Shown: piece after piece, positions 1 to 52,294 of the stretch
How the letters are laid out: every line of letters begins with the position of its first letter
Numbering within the stretch: position 1 is the first letter of the stretch
Assembly (NCBI GenBank): GCA_964016885.1
Contig: OZ024743.1
Span: 156,860,001 to 156,924,000 of the forward strand
DNA: 64,000 nucleotides
Source of the DNA: Eledone cirrhosa
Lineage: Eukaryota
Direction: 5' to 3'
The notes under the pieces: model-generated
Seen by the model: the letters and a program-made list of their open reading frames with translations, nothing else
What the model was told of the DNA's origin: nothing
Databases searched by the model: none
Made by a program: the position numbers and the translations under genes

Positions 1-290
1 AATATGCATAAGGAAAGTATATACTTTCAAACGTTCAATCATCTGTCAGAAAGGTCTACGATGCTGACGATAGCTAATAAACTTGAAACTAGTATATCGT
101 TCCGTGTCAGTGTTGAACAATAGGGCGACGATTGTTGCCGAGCAGTGTACGGCGTAATTCAGGCTGTTTGTTTACAAACAAACCGAACATTATAATAAAG
201 GTACGGTAAACCCATACGTTCATATATATATGTATGCATGTATATATATATATATACATACTACGGTATCAGCCGTAGAGTGAGAAATAA
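1..290 (+). repeat. Partial copy of the ~420-bp hammerhead-containing repeat (retrozyme-like), cut by the window edge
   Basis: Reverse complement of the 7660-10245 unit; contains a hammerhead at 58-100. Confidence 0.85.
58..100 (+). ncRNA. Type I hammerhead ribozyme (stem II partly degenerate)
   Basis: ACGATG-CTGACGA-TAGCT-AATA-AACTT-GAAA-CTAG-TA^TATCGT; stem I ACGAUG/UAUCGU, palindromic ACUAGU stem III. Confidence 0.75.
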
Positions 291-2655: not shown

Positions 2656-3060
<405 letters not shown>

Positions 3061-7723: not shown

Positions 7724-7856
<133 letters not shown>

Positions 7857-8704
7857 GTACGTATGGGTTTACCGAAAATTTATTATAATGCTCAGTTTGT
7901 TTGTAAAGAAACAGCCTGAATTATTAGCTGTACAGTGTTCGGCAACCATGGTTGCCATTATGTTCAACACTGACAAAAAAAAAACGATGAAATAGTTTCT
8001 AGCTTATTAGCTGTCAACAGCACCGTATTCATTCCTGTCAGACCATTGAACGTTTAATAGTATATATATTCCTAATGCATATTTACGGCTGAGCAGCCTA
8101 ATTTGCATATCGAATGAGTTAGTCGGCCGGGCGTACAAAAAACGATAAATGTAAAAAATGAAATTTTATTTTTTCACTCTTAGTACGGCTGATACTTAAA
8201 TATAAGTATGTATACATACATACATATATGTATACAGAGGTACACTAGTATGTATATACATACATGCACACATATATATATGTACCTATGGATTTACCGA
8301 ACATTTAATATAATGTTCGGTTTGTTTGTAACAAACAGCCCGAATTATTAGCCGTACAGTGTTCGGTAACCATCGTTGCCATTTTGTTCAACACTGACAA
8401 AGGAACGATGAACGACTTCTAGCTTATTAGCTGTCATCAGCACCGTATACCTTCCTGTCAGTAGATTGAACGTTTGAGAGTATATACTTTCCTCATGCAT
8501 ATTAATGGCTGAGCAGGCTAATTTGCATATCGAGTGAGTTAGTCGGCCGGGCGTACTGAAAACGATAAATGGAAAAAATGAAATTTCGTTTCTCACGGCT
8601 TATACTAAAATATAAGTATGTATACGTACATACAAATGTGTATACAGACGTAGAATAGTATGTATATACATACATACATGCACACACACACACACACACA
8701 CATG

Positions 8705-8746
<42 letters not shown>

Positions 8747-9049
8747 GGTTCACCGAACATTTACTATAATGCTCAGTTTGTTTGTAAACAAACCGCCAGA
8801 ACTATTAGCCGTACAGTGTTTGGCAAACATCGTTGCATATTAACGGCTGAGTAGCCTAATTTGCATATAGAGTGAGTTAGTCGGCCGGGCGTACCGAAAA
8901 CGTTAAATGGAAAAAATGAAATTTCATTTCTCACTCTTACTACGGGTGATACTTAAATATAAGTATGTATACGTACATGCATATATGTATACAGACGGAC
9001 AGTTGTATATATATATATATACATACATGCACACACACACGAACATATA

Positions 9050-9084
<35 letters not shown>

Positions 9085-9338
9085 GCATTGTATTACCGAA
9101 CATTTACTATAATATTTACTTAAATATAAATATGTATACGTACATACAAATATCTATACAGACGTACAGTAGTATGTATATACATACATACATACATGCA
9201 CACATATATATACATGTGTACGTATGGGTTTACCCAACATTTATTATAATGCTCGGTTTGTTTGTAAACAAACCAGAATTATTAGCCGTACATTGTTCGG
9301 CAACCATCGATGCCATTTTGTTCAACACTGACAGAGGA

Positions 9339-9381
9339 ACGATGAACTAGTTTCTAGCTTATTAGTTGTCATCAGCACCAT
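9339..9381 (-). ncRNA. Type I hammerhead ribozyme, intact CUGAUGA/GAAA core
   Basis: Minus strand: ATGGTG-CTGATGA-CAACT-AATA-AGCTA-GAAA-CTAG-TT^CATCGT. Confidence 0.75.
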
Positions 9382-9767
9382 ATACCTTCATGTCAGTCGA
9401 TTGAACAGTCGATTTGAGAGTATATACTTTCTTCATGCATAATAACGGCTGAGCAACCTAATTTGCATATCGAGTGAGTTAGTCGACTGGGGGTACCGAA
9501 AACGATAATGGAAAAAATGAAATTTCATTTCTCACTCTTAGTAAGGCTGATACTTAAATATAAGTATGTATACGTACATACATATATGTATACAGAGGTA
9601 CAGTAGTATGTACATATATACATACATGCACATATATATATATGTACCTATGGGTTTACCGAACAATTATTATAATGCTCAGTTTCTTTGTAACCAAACA
9701 ACCCGAATTATTAGCCGTACAGTGTTCTGCAACCATCGTTGCCATTTTCTTCAACACTGACAATGGA

Positions 9768-9810
9768 ACGATGAACCAGTTTCTAACTTATTAGCTGTCA
9801 TCAGCACCGT
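9768..9810 (-). ncRNA. Type I hammerhead ribozyme, intact CUGAUGA/GAAA core
   Basis: Minus strand: ACGGTG-CTGATGA-CAGCT-AATA-AGTTA-GAAA-CTGG-TT^CATCGT. Confidence 0.8.
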
Positions 9811-10429
9811 ACACCTTCCTGTCAGTCGATTGAACGTTTGAGCGTATATACTTTCCTTATGCATATTAACGGCTGAGCAGCCTAATTTGCATATCGTTAA
9901 TTATTAACCGTACAGTGTTCGGCAAACATCGTTGCCATTTTGTTCAACACTGCTAAAAGGAACGATGAACTAGTTTCTAGCTTATTAGCTGTCAACAGCA
10001 CCGTATACATTCCGGTCAGTCGATTGAGCGTTTCAGAGTATATACTTTCCTTATGCATATTAACGGTTGAGCAGCCTAATTTGGCATGTCGAGTGAGTTA
10101 GTCGGCCGGGCGTACTGAAAACGATAAATGGAAAAACTGAAATTTCATTTCTCAATCTTAGTACGGCTGATACTTAAATATATGTATGTATACGTACATA
10201 CAAATATGTAATCAGACGTACAGTAGTATTTATATACATACATAACAGAACTGTTGGAAGAACAGACATAAGTAAGACAATGGAGACAATACTGGGAACA
10301 AATATTTACAATAAGAAATACCATCATAGAGATGAGTGGCCGACTCTGTCGAAAGCCGCCTTGAGGTCGACGACGGTAACTTAGGGGCGGCGATTTTGCG
10401 GAAGTCTTTCAATAATAGGACGGAGGGCA

Positions 10430-19272: not shown

Positions 19273-21307
19273 TGTAATTGCAGTCAGCGAGACCAGGATT
19301 TCCGACACGCGCGCACTAGCCCCCATTTTCGACGACTATCAGATCTTTGCATCTGTTAGCCGGCCGGGAATGGGAGTCGGGGTGGAAGTGCTGTTTAGGA
19401 AAGGCCTGGATCTCGAGGTAAGGTCGATCTTCCGGGACCCGGACGGGAAGTTGGTGGTCCTGGACGTGAACAATAATGAAGGTGGTGCCTTTAGACTGGT
19501 GGCCGTCTATGCTCCTACTGGGGCAGGACGGCCGTACTACTTTAGACGCCTGGAAGCCTTTCTGGGTACGACTCGCCCTTTACTGTTAGTGGGGGACTAG
19601 AATGGCATCTTAGACGCACGCTGGGACTGTGTGGGAGTATCCGATAGGAGCGGGGGGAGCAAAAGCCTCAAGAACCTGATCAGCCAGTTCCAACTGTCTG
19701 ACAGGTACCGACTAGATTTCCCTAATGCGCCACTGTGGACCTGGGCTAACCGCATAGGGTCATCTAGATCGTATATAAACAGGAAATTCATTAGGAAAAT
19801 AGACAGAAATAGTGTAAGCTGTCCACGTTTTGAAATGGTCGCCTATTCAGATCACAAGTTTGTGATCTGTATGGTCGACCTAGATAAGACGCGTAGGTTA
19901 GGACCTGGTTACTGGAAGCTAAAATTGTCATTTCCGGCACGTAAGGCTTACAGGGACCAGGTCAACAATTTAGTTAAGAAGAAGTTGACAGGGGGAGTCG
20001 TCAACAATAGATGGTGGGGGGCTCTCAAAAGAGAGATTAGAGTAATGTCGATAGAGTTTAGCAACGAAGTAGCATTAGAGAAATATAGTTGGTAGATAAG
20101 TCAGACGAGGCTATTGGTAGTGGCATTGCAGCTGATGTGCTAGCGGCGAGAATGGCATTAGACCATTTCTTCAATGCGAAGCACGAAGGTTGCATTGTCA
20201 GAGCTAAGGCGCGTGCTCTGAGAAACGAGGGAACCAAAGCTGTTCGATGGGCCCGCGTGCCAGACGCGCAGCGTGGTAATAAAACCACGATTCGGTCTTT
20301 GACGGACCGAGACGGGCACGAGCTGAGCGATTCCAAGAGGATGTGAAAGGCCTTTCGCCAACATTTTGCTCGGTTGTTCGGGGGAAGTGGCGGGTCAGAG
20401 ATGGTGGCGGACTTCAGTTCCTACCTCGATGGCTTGCCGCAACTCTCGACGGCTGACGCTGGGCGCTGCGAAAGGCCAATTACTTCAGCCGAGATTCAGG
20501 ATGCCATTGTAGGCTGCATGAGGCACAAGTCACGCGGTTTGGATGGTCTGCACTACGAGCTTTCAGTAAATATGCCAGACTTGTTCTCCAATCTCCTCGA
20601 AGCGTTCTACTGCAACTGGCAGCAAAACGGTAGTATTCCCAGTTCTGTGAGCCGGGGCGTAGTGACGCTGATAAGGAAAGACGAGAACAAGAGGGACACA
20701 TTAGACAATTTCAGGCCCATAACTCTGCTCAACACAGAGTTTAAGATTTTGGCCAGGGTGCTAGCGAAGAGGTTGGCGCTTGTCGTCGGCGATTTGGTTG
20801 GGGAGGCGCAAACTTGCGCAATCCCAACAAGGTCCATACACGACAACCTCCACCTAATAGGATACATCATAGAGAGGGTAGGGTGTAAACCTGGCTTCGG
20901 TGGGGCTCTGATCAATTTAGATCAATCGAAAGCATTCGATAGGGTTAACCATCGGTACCTGGAGGCTGTCCTCAAGGCGGCTGGTTTCGGCCCCGTCTTC
21001 AGAAGCTGGATCGCTGCAATGCACAACGGCACCTGCTCGATGGTCAAAATTAATGGCCACCTCTCGGAACCGTTTCAGGTCTCCCGATCGGTCCGTCAAG
21101 AGTGCCCTCTCTCCTCCCTTCTGTACGTATTGACTCTCGAGCCTTTACTGCGGAAGCTGGAGCTGTTGCAGGGCATCCCGCTCGATCCGGGACGCGGAAA
21201 GGCTGTGTCAGCTTATGCAGTCGACATCACCGTGATGGTGTCGGACACCTCAGAAATCGAGGTGGTCGGCAACTTATTGGAGGAATATGAAAGGTTGACG
21301 GGAACAA
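19175..21307 (+). pseudogene. LINE ORF2: AP endonuclease and reverse transcriptase, with stops and frameshifts
   Basis: ORFs 19175-19600, 19631-20095, 20089-20346, 20374-21549 carry APE and RT motifs. Confidence 0.92.
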
Positions 21308-24300
21308 AACTTAGAATAGGCAGCATAAATGCGCGTGGCTTGGGGTCGTCATGGAAGCAGGGCCACATGCTCAACGACCTCAGGTCACTAAACATAGATG
21401 TAGTGGCCATCAGCGAGACCAGAATATCCGAAGCACGGGCCTTCGCAGCGATCTTCGGCGGCTACGATGTGTACGCATCTCCCAGCTGTGCTTTTTCGGA
21501 GAGGTTTGGGTCTCGCCATACGGGCCATCTTCCGGGAGCCAGAAGGTAAGTTGGTGGTGCTAGACGTGACCAGCGGAGACAGGCAAGCTTTCAGGCTAGT
21601 GGCCGTCTATGCCCCGAGAGGAGCAGGGCGGCCTGATTTCTTCCGGCGTCTGGTGACCTTTCTTGGAATGTCCCACTCTTTAGTGTTAGTGGGCGACTGG
21701 AACGGGATCTTAGATGCACGCTGGGACTGTGTGGGATCAGCGGATAGGGAAGGAGGGTGCGAAAGCCTCACCAACCTGCTCAGGCGTTTTGAACTGTCTG
21801 ACAGGTACCGATTGGATTTCCCGAATGTACCAATGTGGACTTGGACAAATCGCATAGGGTCATCCAGATCATATCTAGATAGAGTATTTTGTAGGGAAAT
21901 AGATAGGTCTAGCATAGGCTGTCCACAATACAAGATAGTCAGCTACACGGACCACAAATTCGTGATCTGTGTGCTTGACTTAGATAGGTTTCATAGACGA
22001 GGACCCGGCTTCTGGAAGCTAAACGCGTCCTTACCAGCGCTCAAGGCATACAGAGACCGGATTAGCGAACTAGTTAAGCGGGCGTTGACGGGGGCCATCG
22101 TCAACAACAAGTGGTGGTTTGCTCTGTAAAGAGCAATCTGAAAAGAGCAATTATAATAGGGTGCGTGCTCTCAGACACGAGGGGACGAAAGCCATTCAAT
22201 GGGCCTGAGTGGCGGAGGCGCGTCGTGGGCAAAGCCACGATCCGGTCTTTGGTGGACCACGACGGGCGCATGCTACTCGATCCCCAGCAAATGTGTGAAG
22301 CTTTTCAGCGACATTTCGCACAGCTGTTCGGGGGCAGCGGCGGGCCGGATCGAGGGATGGACTTTACTGTCTACCTCGACGGACTGCCGCGGCTCTCGGC
22401 CACTGAGGCGGAGTTTTGCGAAAAGCCGACAACAGCCGCTGAAGTACGGGAGGCAATGACTTGTTGCACAAGGCGTAAATCGCCTGGTGTGGATGATCTG
22501 CCCTATGAACTTTACGTACAGATGCCAGACTTGTTCGGAGGCCTCTTGGCGGACGTCTACTGCAACTGGCAACACAACGGGAGAATTCTCAGCTCTGCGA
22601 GCCGAGGAGCTGTGGTGCTGCTGAGAAAGGATCCGAACAAGGGGGATAACATAGATAATTTCAGGCCCATAACTCTGCTAAACACAGAGTTCAAGATGTT
22701 GGCCAAGGTGCTAGCAAAGAGGTTGGCGCTTGTCGTTGGTGGTCTGGTGAGAGAGGCGCAGACGTGCGCCATTCCCGACAGATCCATCCTCGACAACCTC
22801 CACCTCATGTGATACATCGTAGAGAGGGTAGCTAGGGAACCTGGCACGGGTGGGTCCTTGATCAATTTAGATCAGTCGAAAGCTTTCGATAGCGTCGACC
22901 ATCGTTACCTAGCGGAAGTCCTGAGGGCGGCTGGCTTTGGGCCCGTCTTCAGAGACTGGATCGCTGCCATGCACAGCGACATCTGCTCTGTGGTGAGAGT
23001 GACGGTCACCTTTCGGAACCGTTCAACATCATGCGCTCGGTCCGCTAAGGATGTCCCCTCTCGTCCCTCTTGTACATATTGACTCTCGAGCCATTACTGC
23101 ACAAACTGGAGACGTTGAGGGGGCTCCCGCGCGAACTAGGATGCGGAAGATCCGTGTCAGCATATGCGGACGATGTCACCTTAGTGGTGTCGAACACCAA
23201 ACACATCGAGGCGATCGGCACCACACTAAGATAATACGAAGCGATGACGGGAGCAATATTCAACCAGGAAAAGTCGGCGGGCCTGCAGCTCGGCACCTGG
23301 AGAGGCAAGTCCATGCCGTCCAACAGCGTCGTCGGGCGCTGGACGGACGGACTGGTTAAATTGCTAGGGGTCTGGTTCGGTCTGGACCTCCAGGCGGACA
23401 AAAACTGGGACGAGGTGACGAGCATGTTAGCTTCTCTTACCCAGAAAAGGGCAGAGGGGAAGCTATCCCCGAAAGGTCGAGCGGAGATGGTGAATGCGTA
23501 CATCGCGTCCGTCATCTACTACCGCCTGACCGTCTTACCTTGTCCTAAGCCTCGCCTGACTTCACTGGAGCGTTTGCTCTTTCGCTTTTTGTAGAAGGGA
23601 CGCGCTCCAATGGTCAGGCGCTCCATCTGTTGTCAACGCCCGCTAGGTGGAGGGCTGGGCATGCCATTGCTGATGATGCGCAGACAGGCGCTCAGGTACG
23701 ACATCTCCACCTCTTCTTCGACAGTGATCAGGTGCTAGATATGTCTTTCCCCAGCTCATCTCCTTGACGGAGCTGCAGTCCTGGGTCAAGCGAAGACCGA
23801 GATGTAGCGCTTGGAGACTGGAATGTCTTCAGGCGCTCACAACCCTCGACCAGTCGGGCAATATGATCGGTGGAAACTCCACCTTCGAGTTCTATAGAGG
23901 ATTAGTGGAAGGGATGAGCGGCGACGAACTTGGGGAAAGTCTAGGCGCCGACGAAAATCAACTAACCAATCTCTTCGGAAGAACTATCTGGCCGGGGCAT
24001 ATGTACAACTTCCAGAAATCCCTGGCCTGGCAGTGCTATCGAGGAGTTTGCTAGTTCGGGATAAACTCTACAGGCATGGAGTGCCGTCAGTCGGGCATGT
24101 CCGAGATGCGTGCAGGGCGACGACACCATCCTGGACGCACTCGTCCAGTGTCCGAGCATTGCTGAGTTGTGGGTTTATGTCGAACATCTGCTGTCGCGTA
24201 TAGGACGGATCCCGCTATCAGCTGAGTCCATCGTGAGGATGCCCCGCCCTCTACCTTTAGCCGGGAAGGGCAGGCAGGTTTTATCTGTTTGGTGACCATG

Positions 24301-47240: not shown

Positions 47241-47276
47241 TATATGCAAATACATTTCTAATTGACATATATATAT

Positions 47277-47443
47277 AAATATAAGTATGTATACGTACAT
47301 ACATATATGTATACAGATGTACAGTAGTATGTATATATATACATACATGCACACGTATATATATGTACGTATGGGTTTACCGAACATTTATTATAATGTT
47401 CGGTTTGTTTGTAAACAAACAGCCCGAATTCTGACAAAGGAAC
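47277..47443 (-). repeat. Internally deleted fragment of the ~420-bp retrozyme-like repeat
   Basis: ATAAGTATGTATACGTAC...CCGAACATTTATTATAATGTTCGG...CCCGAATT|CTGACAAAGGAAC. Confidence 0.85.
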
Positions 47444-48288: not shown

Positions 48289-51025
48289 TAAAATAACAGA
48301 TTAAAGTTTAAGCAAAGAATCGCTGCTTTCACCATTAACGGGATCTTCTGAAACTAACAAAATCAATCTGTAAACGCAGAACTGGATATTTCAAAAAACG
48401 TTGCAACCAGAGGAAGACAGGGAGACGATAATTTGGTTCGTGGAAACGTTCGCTGGCAAAGAACGGGGAAAAACGAATAATTCGTCATTAATAGGAGCGG
48501 TGAAAAACAATTACGCGCAAAGACACAACCACGTTTATAAAAGAGGTCGTAGACTAATGTTCTCTTAGGTGGTGCATAGAGACGTTCTCTGACAATGAAC
48601 GAAAAAACGAAGATAATACGTCATATGTGGCGCGTGGAGAACAATAGCACGCCAAGACAAAACCATGTAAATGGTATAGCAGAATTGGTAGACTAAAATT
48701 CTAACTAGGAGACCAAATGAATCAAATATACGTACGAGGAGGTATACGTACCTTTACAAAACATACGGGTAATATATACTAACCTATGCAAATAAGTAAA
48801 GGAATAAACAAAACATATACTTAGCTCCCACATCAGGACGTAAAATATCCACGTATAGATCGTACTATCCGTTAGGGTATAATGTGGGGCTGTAATACAA
48901 GAATGTTTTGTGCAATTTATGTTTACAAGCCGAAATTGCCTCAGATTTTTTGTTTAAGATGTTGTCTGTGGAGTAGAGTATTTCCAGGGCCTCAGCGGCG
49001 CAGAGGTCACATGGTCTTTTATTTCCGTTATACGATCTAGCCCTAGCTAGGATCTCCCAGTGTAACTTATATTGGGTGTGGTTGTCTTTTAGACTCCAGA
49101 TATAAGATGAAAGTGATGTCATATTCCTTCTTAGAGGGTAACGAAAAGAATGGGTATGCATGTAAAGACGCTGCTTGAAACTATTGGCGGTTAATCCTAT
49201 GTAGGCCCTACGGGACGTGGGTGTTACAACCTTACATTTGTAGACAATGTTACTAGAGAGGCATTTCCCGGATAGGGGGCAATCAGCCCGATTCCTACAA
49301 TTACAGTTAGTACTAACTACAGGGTTGCACGTGTTCCTACGGCTAGGTAGTTTACCTAAATTTGAAGCTGTAATGTTATGTGCAATGTTAGGAGTCGTAG
49401 AGTAAGAAATTTTAATAGTATTTATATTAAACACTTTACTATGTTTATGTGTAGGGGGAAATGCTTCGTAATAAGGGAAAGAAAGATCTTAGCTAATGGT
49501 GTGGCCACCTCCATATTATATGGTGGGTTATACCAACAAATGCGACGGGATCTATTGCTTCTAGGTCTATTTTCGTACTCTGTATATGCTACCTTATCGA
49601 CAAATACACTTCGAGCAAGAGCTTCATTTTAATATGTGGAATGGTCGTTGAAAATACGCTCGTTGGTGGAAAGACGGGAAAGCCCCAACGAAACGTTTCT
49701 TACCAGGTTCTTGGTTATGCTGGCAGTATGGTTGGAATGCTTACTTATGTAATTAAGCGTATCATTCGGCTTTCTATACGGGTAATACAACCCATTCAAT
49801 AAATTGAGGGTAACGTCGAGGTAATTAACGACCGAGAGATTGGCCTCAACCTGTATAGAGAGGTTGAAGCCTTTAAAGAAGGCTGTGAGTTCTTTTCTGA
49901 ACCTGTCGCAAGCACGAGGTCCGCACTTAGTCATGGTCAAAAGACCATCGTCGCGGTACAAACCACCGCCCACGTTGGGGAATTCGTCCTTGATAGAGAA
50001 AAGAAGGAAAAGGCCAATAAGATCAGTAACCTCCGCAGAGTCACTGGCGCCCATACTCACTTTGAATGGGGTACTATTGGATTTTTTAATCCAAATAGAG
50101 TCGTCGAAATTAATCACCGACTTTCGGGCATTGAGGATGACATCAACTTCGAAATCCTTAACCACTGTGAGTGTTTTAGCGAAATTGATAACTCTAAGGA
50201 GAAGTGGTAAAGTAATGGAGGAGTAGTAATTGTTGATGTCGAATTGGATAAAACGGCAATGTTCCTTGTTACATATTCCGTTGAAGAAATCATCACCGCG
50301 AAAGTATTGTTCCACAGTACAAGAGGGGCCAAACTTCTAATTTCAGGTATAATTCTATCAAGAATCGTTTTACTAAGTCTACCTAAATCGTAATTCGTAG
50401 GGTTAATAAGCCGAATAGAGGGGTTGTTCGGAAAATTCGATTTGTGATCCTTTAGGGTAAAGTGGGGAGAAATAGGGTCCAGAGGTTCGGTCCGGTGCAG
50501 GACGTTGAGATCAGATGTGATTTTAAACCCAGCATCGTTGATTTCATTGATGACGCACCGATTAGTTTTACGGTAATCCTTAGTTACAGCATTATGTAGT
50601 AGTTGATGGTAAGTACTGCGATCCACTTGATATAGGTAGCCAGTTTTGTCGGAATGGACGTGCACGGCGTTAGAATCCTTAATAGAACGAATTCTATTCT
50701 TCAGGTCTTGCTGGAAGGAATTGATCCTATTCCGAAATTTGATACTCCGAATGAGTTCCAAGACATCATTTTCGAAGGGTAGCAATGCTCGGTTCCACGG
50801 GGGTTATTATAGGTTTTAAATCCAAATGTATCTTTTTTGTTGTCTGCTTTTCGTGGATTATCGAAACAAAAGGCACGCCAACGCAACCTTTTAATGAACG
50901 CGACTGTTTTCTGTATCAGGAGTTTTAGGTATGTTTTCCTGCTTGGTACGGGTATGTTCTTTGTAGAAATATTCAGATGTTGTTTCTGCATGATGAATAT
51001 AAGTCAGTAGAGTGCTCTGTGTATA
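48285..51025 (-). mobile_element. Near full-length Naiad-type Penelope-like element, frameshifted
   Basis: ORF pieces 50991-50701 (STKNIPVPS...FIKRLRWRA), 50785-50114, 50315-49629 (QFDINNYYSSI, YRDDG), 49434-48865 (CNCR..CPLSGKCL, YIG, CDLC..E, CKH); 3' end at (TA)n. Confidence 0.93.
48305..48355 (-). ncRNA. Hammerhead at the PLE 3' end (core reads CAGAAGA in this copy)
   Basis: Minus strand: AGTTT-CAGAAGA-T-CCC-GTTAA-TGG-T-GAA-AGCA(loop)TGCT-T^AAACT; copies at 2838 and 2972 have GGG in stem II. Confidence 0.65.
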
Positions 51026-51027
51026 CA

Positions 51028-51088
51028 ATTCGGGCTGTTTGTTTACAAACAAACCGAACATTATAATAAATGTTCGGTAAACCCATAC

Positions 51089-51174
<86 letters not shown>

Positions 51175-51902
51175 ATGTATGTATATATATACATACTACT
51201 GTACGACGTATGTATACATATATGTATATACGTATACATACTTATATTTAAGTATCACCCTTACAACGAGTGACAAATGAAATTTCGTTTCAATCTTTTC
51301 TATTTATCGTTCTCGGTACGTCCGGCCGACTCACTTATTCGGTATGCAAATTAGGCTGCTCAGCCGTTAATATACATAAGGAAAGTATATACTTTCAAAC
51401 GTTCAATCATCTGACAGGAAGGTATACGAAGCTGACGATAGCTAATAAGCTTGAAACTAGTTCATCCTTCCTTTGTCAATGTTGAACAAAAGGGCAACGA
51501 TGGTTGCTGAACACTGTACGACTTAATTCGGGCTGTTTGTTTACAAACAAACCGAACATTATAATAAATCTTCGGTAAACCCATCCGTAAATATATAAAT
51601 GTGTGCATGTATGTATATATATATATATATATATATACATACTACTGTACGTCTGTATACATACTTATATTTAAGTATCAGCCCTACTAAGAGTGAGAAA
51701 TGAAATTTCGTTTCATTCTTTTCCATTTATAGTTTTAGGTTCGCCCGGCCGACTAACTCACTCGATATGCAAATTAGGCTGATCAGCCGTTAATATACAT
51801 AAGGAAAGTATATACTTTCAAACGTTCAATCATCTGACAGGAAGGTATACAATGCTGACGATAGCTAATAATCTTGAAACTAGTTCATCGTTCCTTTGTC
51901 AT
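51028..51902 (+). repeat. Two tandem units (423-bp spacing) of the retrozyme-like repeat
   Basis: ATGCAAAT at 51344 and 51767; CTGACGA cores at 51432 and 51855. Confidence 0.9.
51426..51468 (+). ncRNA. Type I hammerhead ribozyme (second copy 51849-51891)
   Basis: CTGACGA-TAGCT-AATA-AGCTT-GAAA-CTAG-TT^CATC. Confidence 0.75.
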
Positions 51903-51914
51903 TGTTCCTTTGTG

Positions 51915-52237
51915 AACCCGATTCCTACAATTACAGTTAGTACTAAGTACAGGGTTGCGCGTGTTCCTACGGCTAGGTAATTTAGCTAAATTTGAGGCAG
52001 TGATGTTATGTGCAAGGTTAGGAGTCGTAGAATAATATATGTTAAGGTTATTTCTATTAAAAATATTATTATATTTATGTGCTGAGTAGAAATGGTTCTT
52101 AATACGGGAGAGAAAGATCTTAGCTAATGGTGTGGCCACCTCCATATTATATGGTGGGTTACACCATATAATGCATCGGGATCTATTTTTCCTTGGTCTA
52201 TGCTCATACTTAGTATATGCTACCTTATCGATAAATT
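51915..52237 (-). mobile_element. Internal fragment of a Naiad-type PLE paralogous to 49287-49605
   Basis: MEVATPLAKIFLSR...YSTTPNLAHNITASNLAKLPSRRN...TNCNCRNR. Confidence 0.88.
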
Positions 52238-52294
52238 CAATGTATATGGAATAAAATATATGGAACTCTTTTAACTATCTTTTAATTTCTTCTT

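Follow-up and report, generated by a model that had tools for sequence, protein, structure and literature searches.

A repeat with a hammerhead motif and an octamer: a likely snRNA-type promoter within the unit

Known retrozymes and the 425-bp repeat

Metazoan non-LTR retrozymes are described in the main texts of two studies as protein-less tandem units of 150 to more than 400 bp with a type I hammerhead ribozyme, for which mobilisation by Penelope-like elements has been proposed (Cervera and de la Pena, 2020, PMC7229834; Li, Clavereau and Pollet, 2026, 10.64898/2026.07.22.740005), and strong transcription of animal retrozymes was found in all tissues examined (PMC7229834). Regarding promoters, the main text of PMC7229834 names no endogenous one, the word occurring twice and both times for T7, and the main text of 10.64898/2026.07.22.740005 uses the word 0 times. 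Retrozyme promoters are named for newts and schistosomes in PMC2220036, where a citing passage reports an snRNA-type Pol II promoter for newt satellite 2, which upholds that part of the newt parallel drawn in the initial annotation of this locus. For retrozymes of molluscs, cephalopods included, no report of a promoter was found in a literature search that covered mainly the main texts of journals available without subscription. Penelope-like elements form partial tandems with inverted 5' pieces and a variable tail, use AT-rich or (TA)n targets, carry a hammerhead in their repeated part and have an internal promoter in the pLTR (PMC8557442; PMC11167929).

The window, meaning the whole stretch of 64,000 nt analysed here, contains copies of a 425-bp protein-less unit with a type I hammerhead motif, as defined by alignment of 96 core-anchored genomic copies. 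Being short, protein-less, tandem and of high copy number, with a type I hammerhead, the repeat is a non-LTR retrozyme by the sequence features that could be tested. With newt satellite 2 it shares the type I hammerhead, a helix III that is weak and has a loop of four bases, and an snRNA-type promoter inside the unit, here predicted; it differs in its invertebrate host, in its 425-bp unit, which occurs mainly as dispersed copies or as short tandems that include inversions, and in forming several parallel families. The octamer of the repeat stands 16 nt ahead of a candidate PSE core, in the layout of host Pol III genes; for newt satellite 2, Coats, Zhang and Epstein (1994) reportedly described an octamer and a PSE.

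Six copies, some partly deleted, make up a minus-strand cluster at 7769-10244. The copy holding the octamer at 8101 (7769..8145) ends in a (TA)n tract and is followed by a full unit (8146..8565; octamer 8521-8528) with its core at 8440 and damaged GAAA and helix III, by an internally deleted copy (8566..8902) that has retained its octamer (8859-8866) and TCAGC and has lost the TATA box and the ribozyme, and by a unit copy (9117..9505; octamer 9461-9468) with its core at 93 nt (a 5-nt insertion) and a helix II mismatch. The best-preserved window copy (9507..9896) has its octamer at 9885-9892, TCAGC at 9872-9876, TATATA at 9845-9850 and a complete core at 9804-9774, and the cluster closes with a partial copy (9899..10244) that has the core CUGUUGA and an octamer with a 1-nt insertion (10079-10087). 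On the plus strand, a two-copy insertion of the subfamily with U.U at 10.1/11.1 (51027..51906) has octamers at 51344 and 51767 and cores at 51432 and 51855, with helix I or II damaged, and a copy at 1..268 (core at 64) is truncated by the edge of the window at a point upstream of its TATA box. A 3' tail fragment on the minus strand (47276..47430) has neither promoter nor ribozyme.

Genome-wide, the 36-nt core occurs exactly 644 times, and the octamer, TCAGC, TATATA and the start of the core are jointly intact in 19,115 matches (reversed control 0). Sixteen segments were present in 10 of 80 evenly spaced 10-kb stretches, 15 of the window family and one of a distant relative, from which about 56,000 segments per genome are estimated, a rough figure as copies cluster; the family is abundant too in contigs of a second organism. 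At least one unit in length was reached by 89 of 176 segments with unique sequence. The 3' ends lie at two places about 45 nt apart in 140 of 170 cases, with 74 of the 170 at the T6 run (+375) and a TA run next to 111 of them, and abutting opposite-strand segments were found in 71 of 147 loci, short tail pieces included. Among segments whose unique sequence reaches 60 nt or more, 5' ends show no pile-up, with 1 at the predicted transcription start and 4 at the cleavage site against 2.9 expected. The partial tandems, 5' inversions, tail and (TA)n targets are those of elements mobilised by Penelope, to which the repeat is also alike in its hammerhead and unlike in having no ORF, and together they suggest mobilisation by a Penelope-like element. 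Several independent segments start at one unit position (about 221; four exact cases), including those at 51027 and 47430 in the window and one at locus L064, possibly a hot spot of truncation or template switching.

Regarding the ribozyme, Rfam hammerhead models at gathering score gave 0 matches in the window, and the hammerhead call is based on motif and pairing. In the family structure, six pairs form helix I, which has a bulged extension, and four pairs form helix II, which carries an AAUA loop; position 10.1/11.1 is mismatched, and helix III consists of a single pair capped by the palindromic CUAG. The family majority agrees with the core CUGANGA / GAAA / UH with helix I open, as CUGAUGA..GAAA..UU in subfamily A and CUGACGA..GAAA..UA in subfamilies B and C. 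The canonical hammerhead pair at 10.1/11.1 is G10.1-C11.1, and it is absent here, with C.A in subfamily A and U.U in B and C. Subfamily A, the main one in the window, has a GUU triplet and is over-represented at 121 rows, the anchor having been picked from this subfamily; subfamily B (8 rows) has GUA, and subfamily C (6 rows) is like B with a helix I G.U to U.G flip, an 8-nt deletion past the TATA box, between it and the ribozyme, and a change at +9 of the extended octamer motif. In its one-pair helix III and palindromic tetraloop the repeat resembles axolotl HHR_Amex1 and in the mismatch at the helix II base HHR_Amex2 (U.U), and in axolotl retrozymes with either feature cleavage is weak for the monomer and good for the dimer (PMC7229834). 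The C.A mismatch with a GUU triplet is unlike the metazoan retrozymes described.

Pairing was found in 93.9% of 311 helix cells and 6 of 21 pairs were changed on both sides, against 2.0 double-changed pairs in shuffles (0 of 500 reached the observed number), in a set of 15 hand-picked related rows where 5 of the 6 double changes come from one distant copy (L248). Within the window, core and helices are kept in the 9885 copy only, for which free-energy folding (z -1.81; equalled by 13 of 200 shuffles) returned the long helix I only, and helices II and III were not obtained together. The 8101 copy has the motif with its extended helix I at 7968..8042 on the minus strand (core 8020-7990), where CUGUUGA replaces CUGAUGA, a departure from the core consensus also found in the 10079 copy, and loop III is the non-palindromic CUAU; its ribozyme is likely inactive. 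The proposal that each unit is self-transcribing and self-processing was too strong, most window copies having damaged ribozymes.

The octamer and the promoters of host snRNA genes

The octamer (ATTTGCAT/ATGCAAAT) is exact at 8101, 8521, 8859, 9461 and 9885 on the minus strand and at 51344 and 51767 on the plus strand, and has a one-base insertion at 10079-10087, so that the seven intact sites and the insertion copy listed in the initial annotation were all confirmed. Its claim of a fixed distance to the hammerhead core is true of five of the eight copies, where 88 nt separate the start of the octamer from that of CUGA; the distance is 89 nt in the insertion copy and 93 nt at 9461, and the 8859 copy has no ribozyme. 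Altogether the window has 12 octamers against 5.3 +/- 2.2 in shuffles, none of 100 of which reached 12; seven of these sites belong to copies of a single repeat and so count as one event, the other 5 are about what chance predicts, and the excess comes wholly from copies of that repeat.

At the 8101 site, on the minus strand throughout, the extended octamer TATGCAAATTAG occupies 8098..8109 (octamer 8101-8108) and is the same 12-mer, 12 of 12 positions, as that ahead of the host U6 gene on C9. It is followed by TCAGC (8088..8092; +16 from the octamer), a candidate PSE core with a weak match, by TATATA (8061..8066; +42, and 26 nt past the candidate core) and by the predicted transcription start, C|A at 8036 (+72), at the 5' arm of the extended helix I and 47 nt ahead of the cleavage site.

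The host U1, U2, U4, U5, U6, MRP and U6atac genes were retrieved with Rfam models. In all 19 divergent promoter groups of the Pol II genes (U1/U2/U4/U5; loci L141-L143, L156-L166 and L276-L315), a core resembling YCAGT lies at -55 to -58; a TATA-like box follows it after 25-29 nt (about -31), and AATT precedes it by 32-34 nt (about -89). The starts of U1, U2 and U4 are Y|A in 15 of 15. The octamer was found at the U6 position in 0 of these 19 groups, and no exact octamer was found within 400 nt except one at -399; a further group has a one-mismatch octamer at -109. Three U6 loci, MRP and the leading U6atac hit (loci L176, L177, L179, L346 and L347) have the motif TATG(C/G)(A/T)AAT(T/G)AG at -76 to -78, with a TATA box 46-48 nt past it (about -30). 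The three U6 loci represent 6 of 21 distinct upstream regions, MRP 1 of 1 gene and U6atac the best-scoring of 8 hits, with one mismatch. The proximal octamer is missing from 15 of 21 U6 upstream regions and 7 of 8 U6atac loci, most of which have lower scores or adjoin microsatellites (in one type an octamer lies at -270), and these were set aside as probable pseudogenes or disrupted copies.

In the vertebrate distal sequence element, the octamer lies about 200-250 nt upstream of the start. The distal role first suggested for the octamer of the repeat was rejected, as it lies 72 nt from the predicted start, and the corresponding host motif is a proximal one, at -76 to -78 in U6, MRP and U6atac and at that place in none of the 19 U1/U2/U4/U5 groups. 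The repeat and the host U6, RNase MRP and U6atac genes are alike in having TATG(C/G)(A/T)AAT(T/G)AG followed by a TATA box; unlike in those genes, the predicted promoter of the repeat is inside a repeated unit that would be read through.

Within the family, conservation of the octamer is moderate. It is intact in 76 of 94 covering rows and is equalled or surpassed by 11% of the 221 8-mers compared and by 20% of the 111 non-CpG 8-mers (175 distinct rows, L248 excluded), an unexceptional result that is expected if inserted copies decay neutrally. Because such copies decay nearly neutrally, within-family 8-mer conservation was dropped as a proof of function. Changes shared by many copies mark source lineages, and such recurrent subfamily variants were found at 26 of 125 positions and at 0 of the 19 positions of the octamer, TCAGC and TATATA (P 0.008; 0.019 without CpG), which is supporting and not decisive, as both the 5.5% threshold and the choice of motifs were fixed once the 8-mer result was known. 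In contigs of the second organism, which have the same subfamilies, 0 of 25 variant places fall in the promoter motifs. Selection is inferred to act on source elements, and most genomic copies, that at 8101 included, to be decaying.

Sister families and the geometry of the candidate promoter

A hammerhead descriptor without an octamer term, run over the fetched loci, revealed eight other hammerhead families, three of which carry TATGCAAATNAG 89-100 nt upstream of the core (F2, at L071 and L166; F3, at L087; F4, at L224), whereas four others have no octamer within 330 nt upstream and L248 is truncated just upstream of a TATA box. The genome-wide octamer-plus-core pattern, with the window family (F1) excluded, gave 9,817 matches (reversed control 0), and the first 100 of them included four further sequence types, F5-F8, with one copy each. 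Ungapped identity among F1-F4 is 0.93 at -1..+10 (the extended octamer), 0.83 at +16..+18 and 0.44 at +36..+49 (around the TATA box), with flanks at 0.23-0.27; the representatives were taken from the octamer pattern search, so that the 0.93 figure is partly by construction. In F1 and F2 both the promoter block (75%) and the ribozyme can be aligned, so that ancestry is partly shared and the families are not independent. The F2 family is also found as an array in which a 466-bp unit is repeated about 30 times nearly unchanged (L324-L345; G000:C1 5.738-5.752 Mb) and whose hammerhead has the canonical G10.1-C11.1 pair, and F2 is the likeliest of the octamer families to have been amplified recently.

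With slightly better than even confidence, the hammerhead-bearing repeat is read here as having its own snRNA-type promoter, with the octamer at its upstream end; this predicted Pol II promoter is of hybrid design, joining a U6-type octamer to a candidate PSE core and a TATA box with U1/U2 spacing. The initial annotation had proposed an snRNA-type promoter in each unit, which the host promoters and the sister families support at the level of sequence, and could identify no PSE by eye; the candidate is now TCAGC at +16, with TATATA at +42, and its match is weak in the window family.

A matrix trained only on the 19 host Pol II promoters (U1/U2/U4/U5) places +16 first of 131 positions in four of the eight octamer families, namely F1 (the window family), F3, F4 and F6, and ranks it 9-15 in F2 and 21-99 in the single-copy F5, F7 and F8. 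The same position ranked first in 2 of 57 non-repeat octamers and in 0 of 5 host Pol III promoters, where its ranks were 6-112. When the matrix is reduced to its core part, +16 comes out best in the window family and F4 only. The window family score of -4.2 is under all 19 leave-one-out host scores (-3.3 to 30.4) and is matched or exceeded by 5 of the 57 control octamers, with a background p of 0.03 and fifth place among 850 positions in the whole unit. The 425-bp unit has TCAGC, TATA at +26 and C|A at +56 from the candidate core, the last as in host U1, and this is the best local position but one with a low score. The repeat is like the host U1, U2, U4 and U5 promoters in its YCAG core, TATA-like box 26 nt later and Y|A 56 nt later, and unlike them in its low matrix score, in the fifth base of the core (C versus the usual T) and in the box at -33, where AATT, 32-34 nt ahead of the core, is absent in all eight octamer families and is replaced by the octamer at -16.

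A plain U6-type Pol III promoter, the first reading of this layout, was lowered after the octamer-TATA spacings had been compared. As an alternative to the Pol II reading, a type 3 Pol III promoter would give an RNA of about 305 nt from +72 to the T6 run at +375, with copies of the promoter arising through leaky termination or read-through, and although unlikely it is kept alive by the 74 of 170 3' ends at the T6 run. The 12-nt octamer is common to host Pol III genes and not to Pol II snRNA genes, the TATATA is a true one, T4+ runs are absent between +72 and +375, and in F8 the TATA box stands at the U6-like distance of 47 nt. The proximal extended octamer of host U6 is thus present in the window family, but its TATA box follows after 42 nt (40-45 in F2-F4 and F6), 4-6 bp less than the 46-48 nt found in 5 of 5 host Pol III promoters, and YCA replaces the CCT that 4 of the 5 have at +15/+16. 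The Pol III RNA would moreover lack the promoter and have a single ribozyme, yet half of the segments span a full unit or more, and two 3' ends about 45 nt apart are also consistent with the 'tail' signature of Penelope (PMC8557442; PMC11167929). The predicted start does not separate the two readings, being also 30 nt past TATATA and hence predicted under either polymerase.

The position of the PSE helps to set the choice of polymerase in Xenopus, going by the title of Lescure (1991) as cited in PMC1761439, and in insects the PSE sequence dominates this choice (PMC1761439). If such rules can be applied to the 425-bp unit, the comparison suggests that a spacing change of 4-6 bp may set polymerase choice.

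The Pol II reading of the hybrid is favoured by an octamer-less hammerhead family (L232), which has AATT (-33), YCAGT and TATAA (+27) 77 nt before its hammerhead core, a full U1/U2-type layout with a matrix score of 12.0 (background p 5e-5), and which shows that a layout of the Pol II snRNA type can occur in retrozymes of this genome. A genome-wide pattern written from L232 gave 14,223 matches against 4, and a diverged second subfamily still keeps all three motifs. The family has 310-bp units in long near-identical head-to-head arrays (L232:5440-6060, G000:C3 near 55.005 Mb; L375-L404). Three more hammerhead families (L012; L066/L250; L078/L214/L246) are octamer-free in the 330 nt upstream, one of them being minimal and usually found as inverted pairs.

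Proposed mechanism, remaining alternatives and significance

Under the hybrid Pol II reading, a POU protein on the octamer would help SNAPc to bind at +16, and transcription would begin shortly before helix I, at the C|A of +72. Pol II would read through the T6 run at +375 into the following unit, giving multimers from tandem copies, from which two hammerheads, probably acting as dimers via the palindromic CUAG loop III, would excise a unit-length RNA that contains the promoter of the next unit and may circularise. A Penelope-type reverse transcriptase/endonuclease would then copy the RNA, as multimers or circles, into (TA)n tracts as insertions of one to several units, and because the released RNA would hold the promoter of the next unit, new copies would inherit it.

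A quite unlikely alternative is that the octamer is a POU activator or chromatin site kept by source elements, with no core promoter and with RNA produced by read-through from host or Penelope transcription. The weak PSE score in the window family, the frequency of TATATA in a genome rich in AT microsatellites, the lack of a signal at the predicted start among the 5' ends of copies and the read-through transcripts of both strands from newt satellite 2 (PMC2114352) are consistent with it. It does not account for the fixed geometry of octamer, +16 and TATA across families whose flanks are at background identity, nor for a sister family with the complete U1/U2-type layout. Conservation at the RNA level (structure, or reverse transcriptase binding in a circular RNA) or a neutral relic of a captured U6-like region, with no present role in transcription, is very improbable, for although the octamer decays at near-neutral rates in copies, the families are partly homologous and the octamer region is paired in the predicted circle, the conserved islands are three separately spaced host promoter motifs that RNA structure does not predict, and the subfamily substitutions avoid them.

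Regarding the wider meaning of the hybrid Pol II promoter, it is proposed tentatively, as a reading less likely than not, that this genome hosts a radiation of retrozymes with SNAPc-type promoters in two designs, one a hybrid absent from host genes that would represent a natural switch from Pol III to Pol II, the other plain U1/U2-type, and that a ribozyme behind the start is an LTR-like solution reached by RNA catalysis. If so, the position of the ribozyme just past the start would let the processed RNA carry the next promoter and, taken with newts, capture of snRNA promoters might be the general reason for the expression of animal retrozymes in all tissues. The snRNA-type Pol II promoter of newt satellite 2 is known already (PMC2220036); what is added here is the case, made from motif spacing, for a hybrid with Pol II-type geometry, together with the genome-wide count of an octamer-less U1/U2-type retrozyme class. 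Promoter, start site and polymerase are exact predictions, for which tens of thousands of copies in several families provide natural variants, and the host snRNA promoter grammar, a proximal octamer for Pol III and AATT/YCAGT for Pol II, is useful for guide-RNA and small-RNA cassettes.

The window also contains other retroelements. Broken reverse transcriptase/endonuclease reading frames on the minus strand at 48290-52290, flanked by (TA)n, are presumably Penelope-like, a label based on motifs; Pfam and PDB searches with these frames gave no match. The two-copy repeat at 51027-51906 is antisense to them, with a duplicated ORF fragment (51907-52290) on one side and the start of the ORF, at about 50992, on the other. 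Five tandem diverged L1/Tx1-like endonuclease-reverse transcriptase copies with ORF1-like frames upstream are present at 17200-39500, and the L1-like frame at 20347-21549 matched RVT_1 and nothing else in the Pfam and PDB searches. Putative degenerate hammerhead-like motifs, noticed by eye at about 48315-48350 (minus) and 2835-2870 (plus), lie close to the 3' ends of Penelope-like elements, directly before (TA)n.
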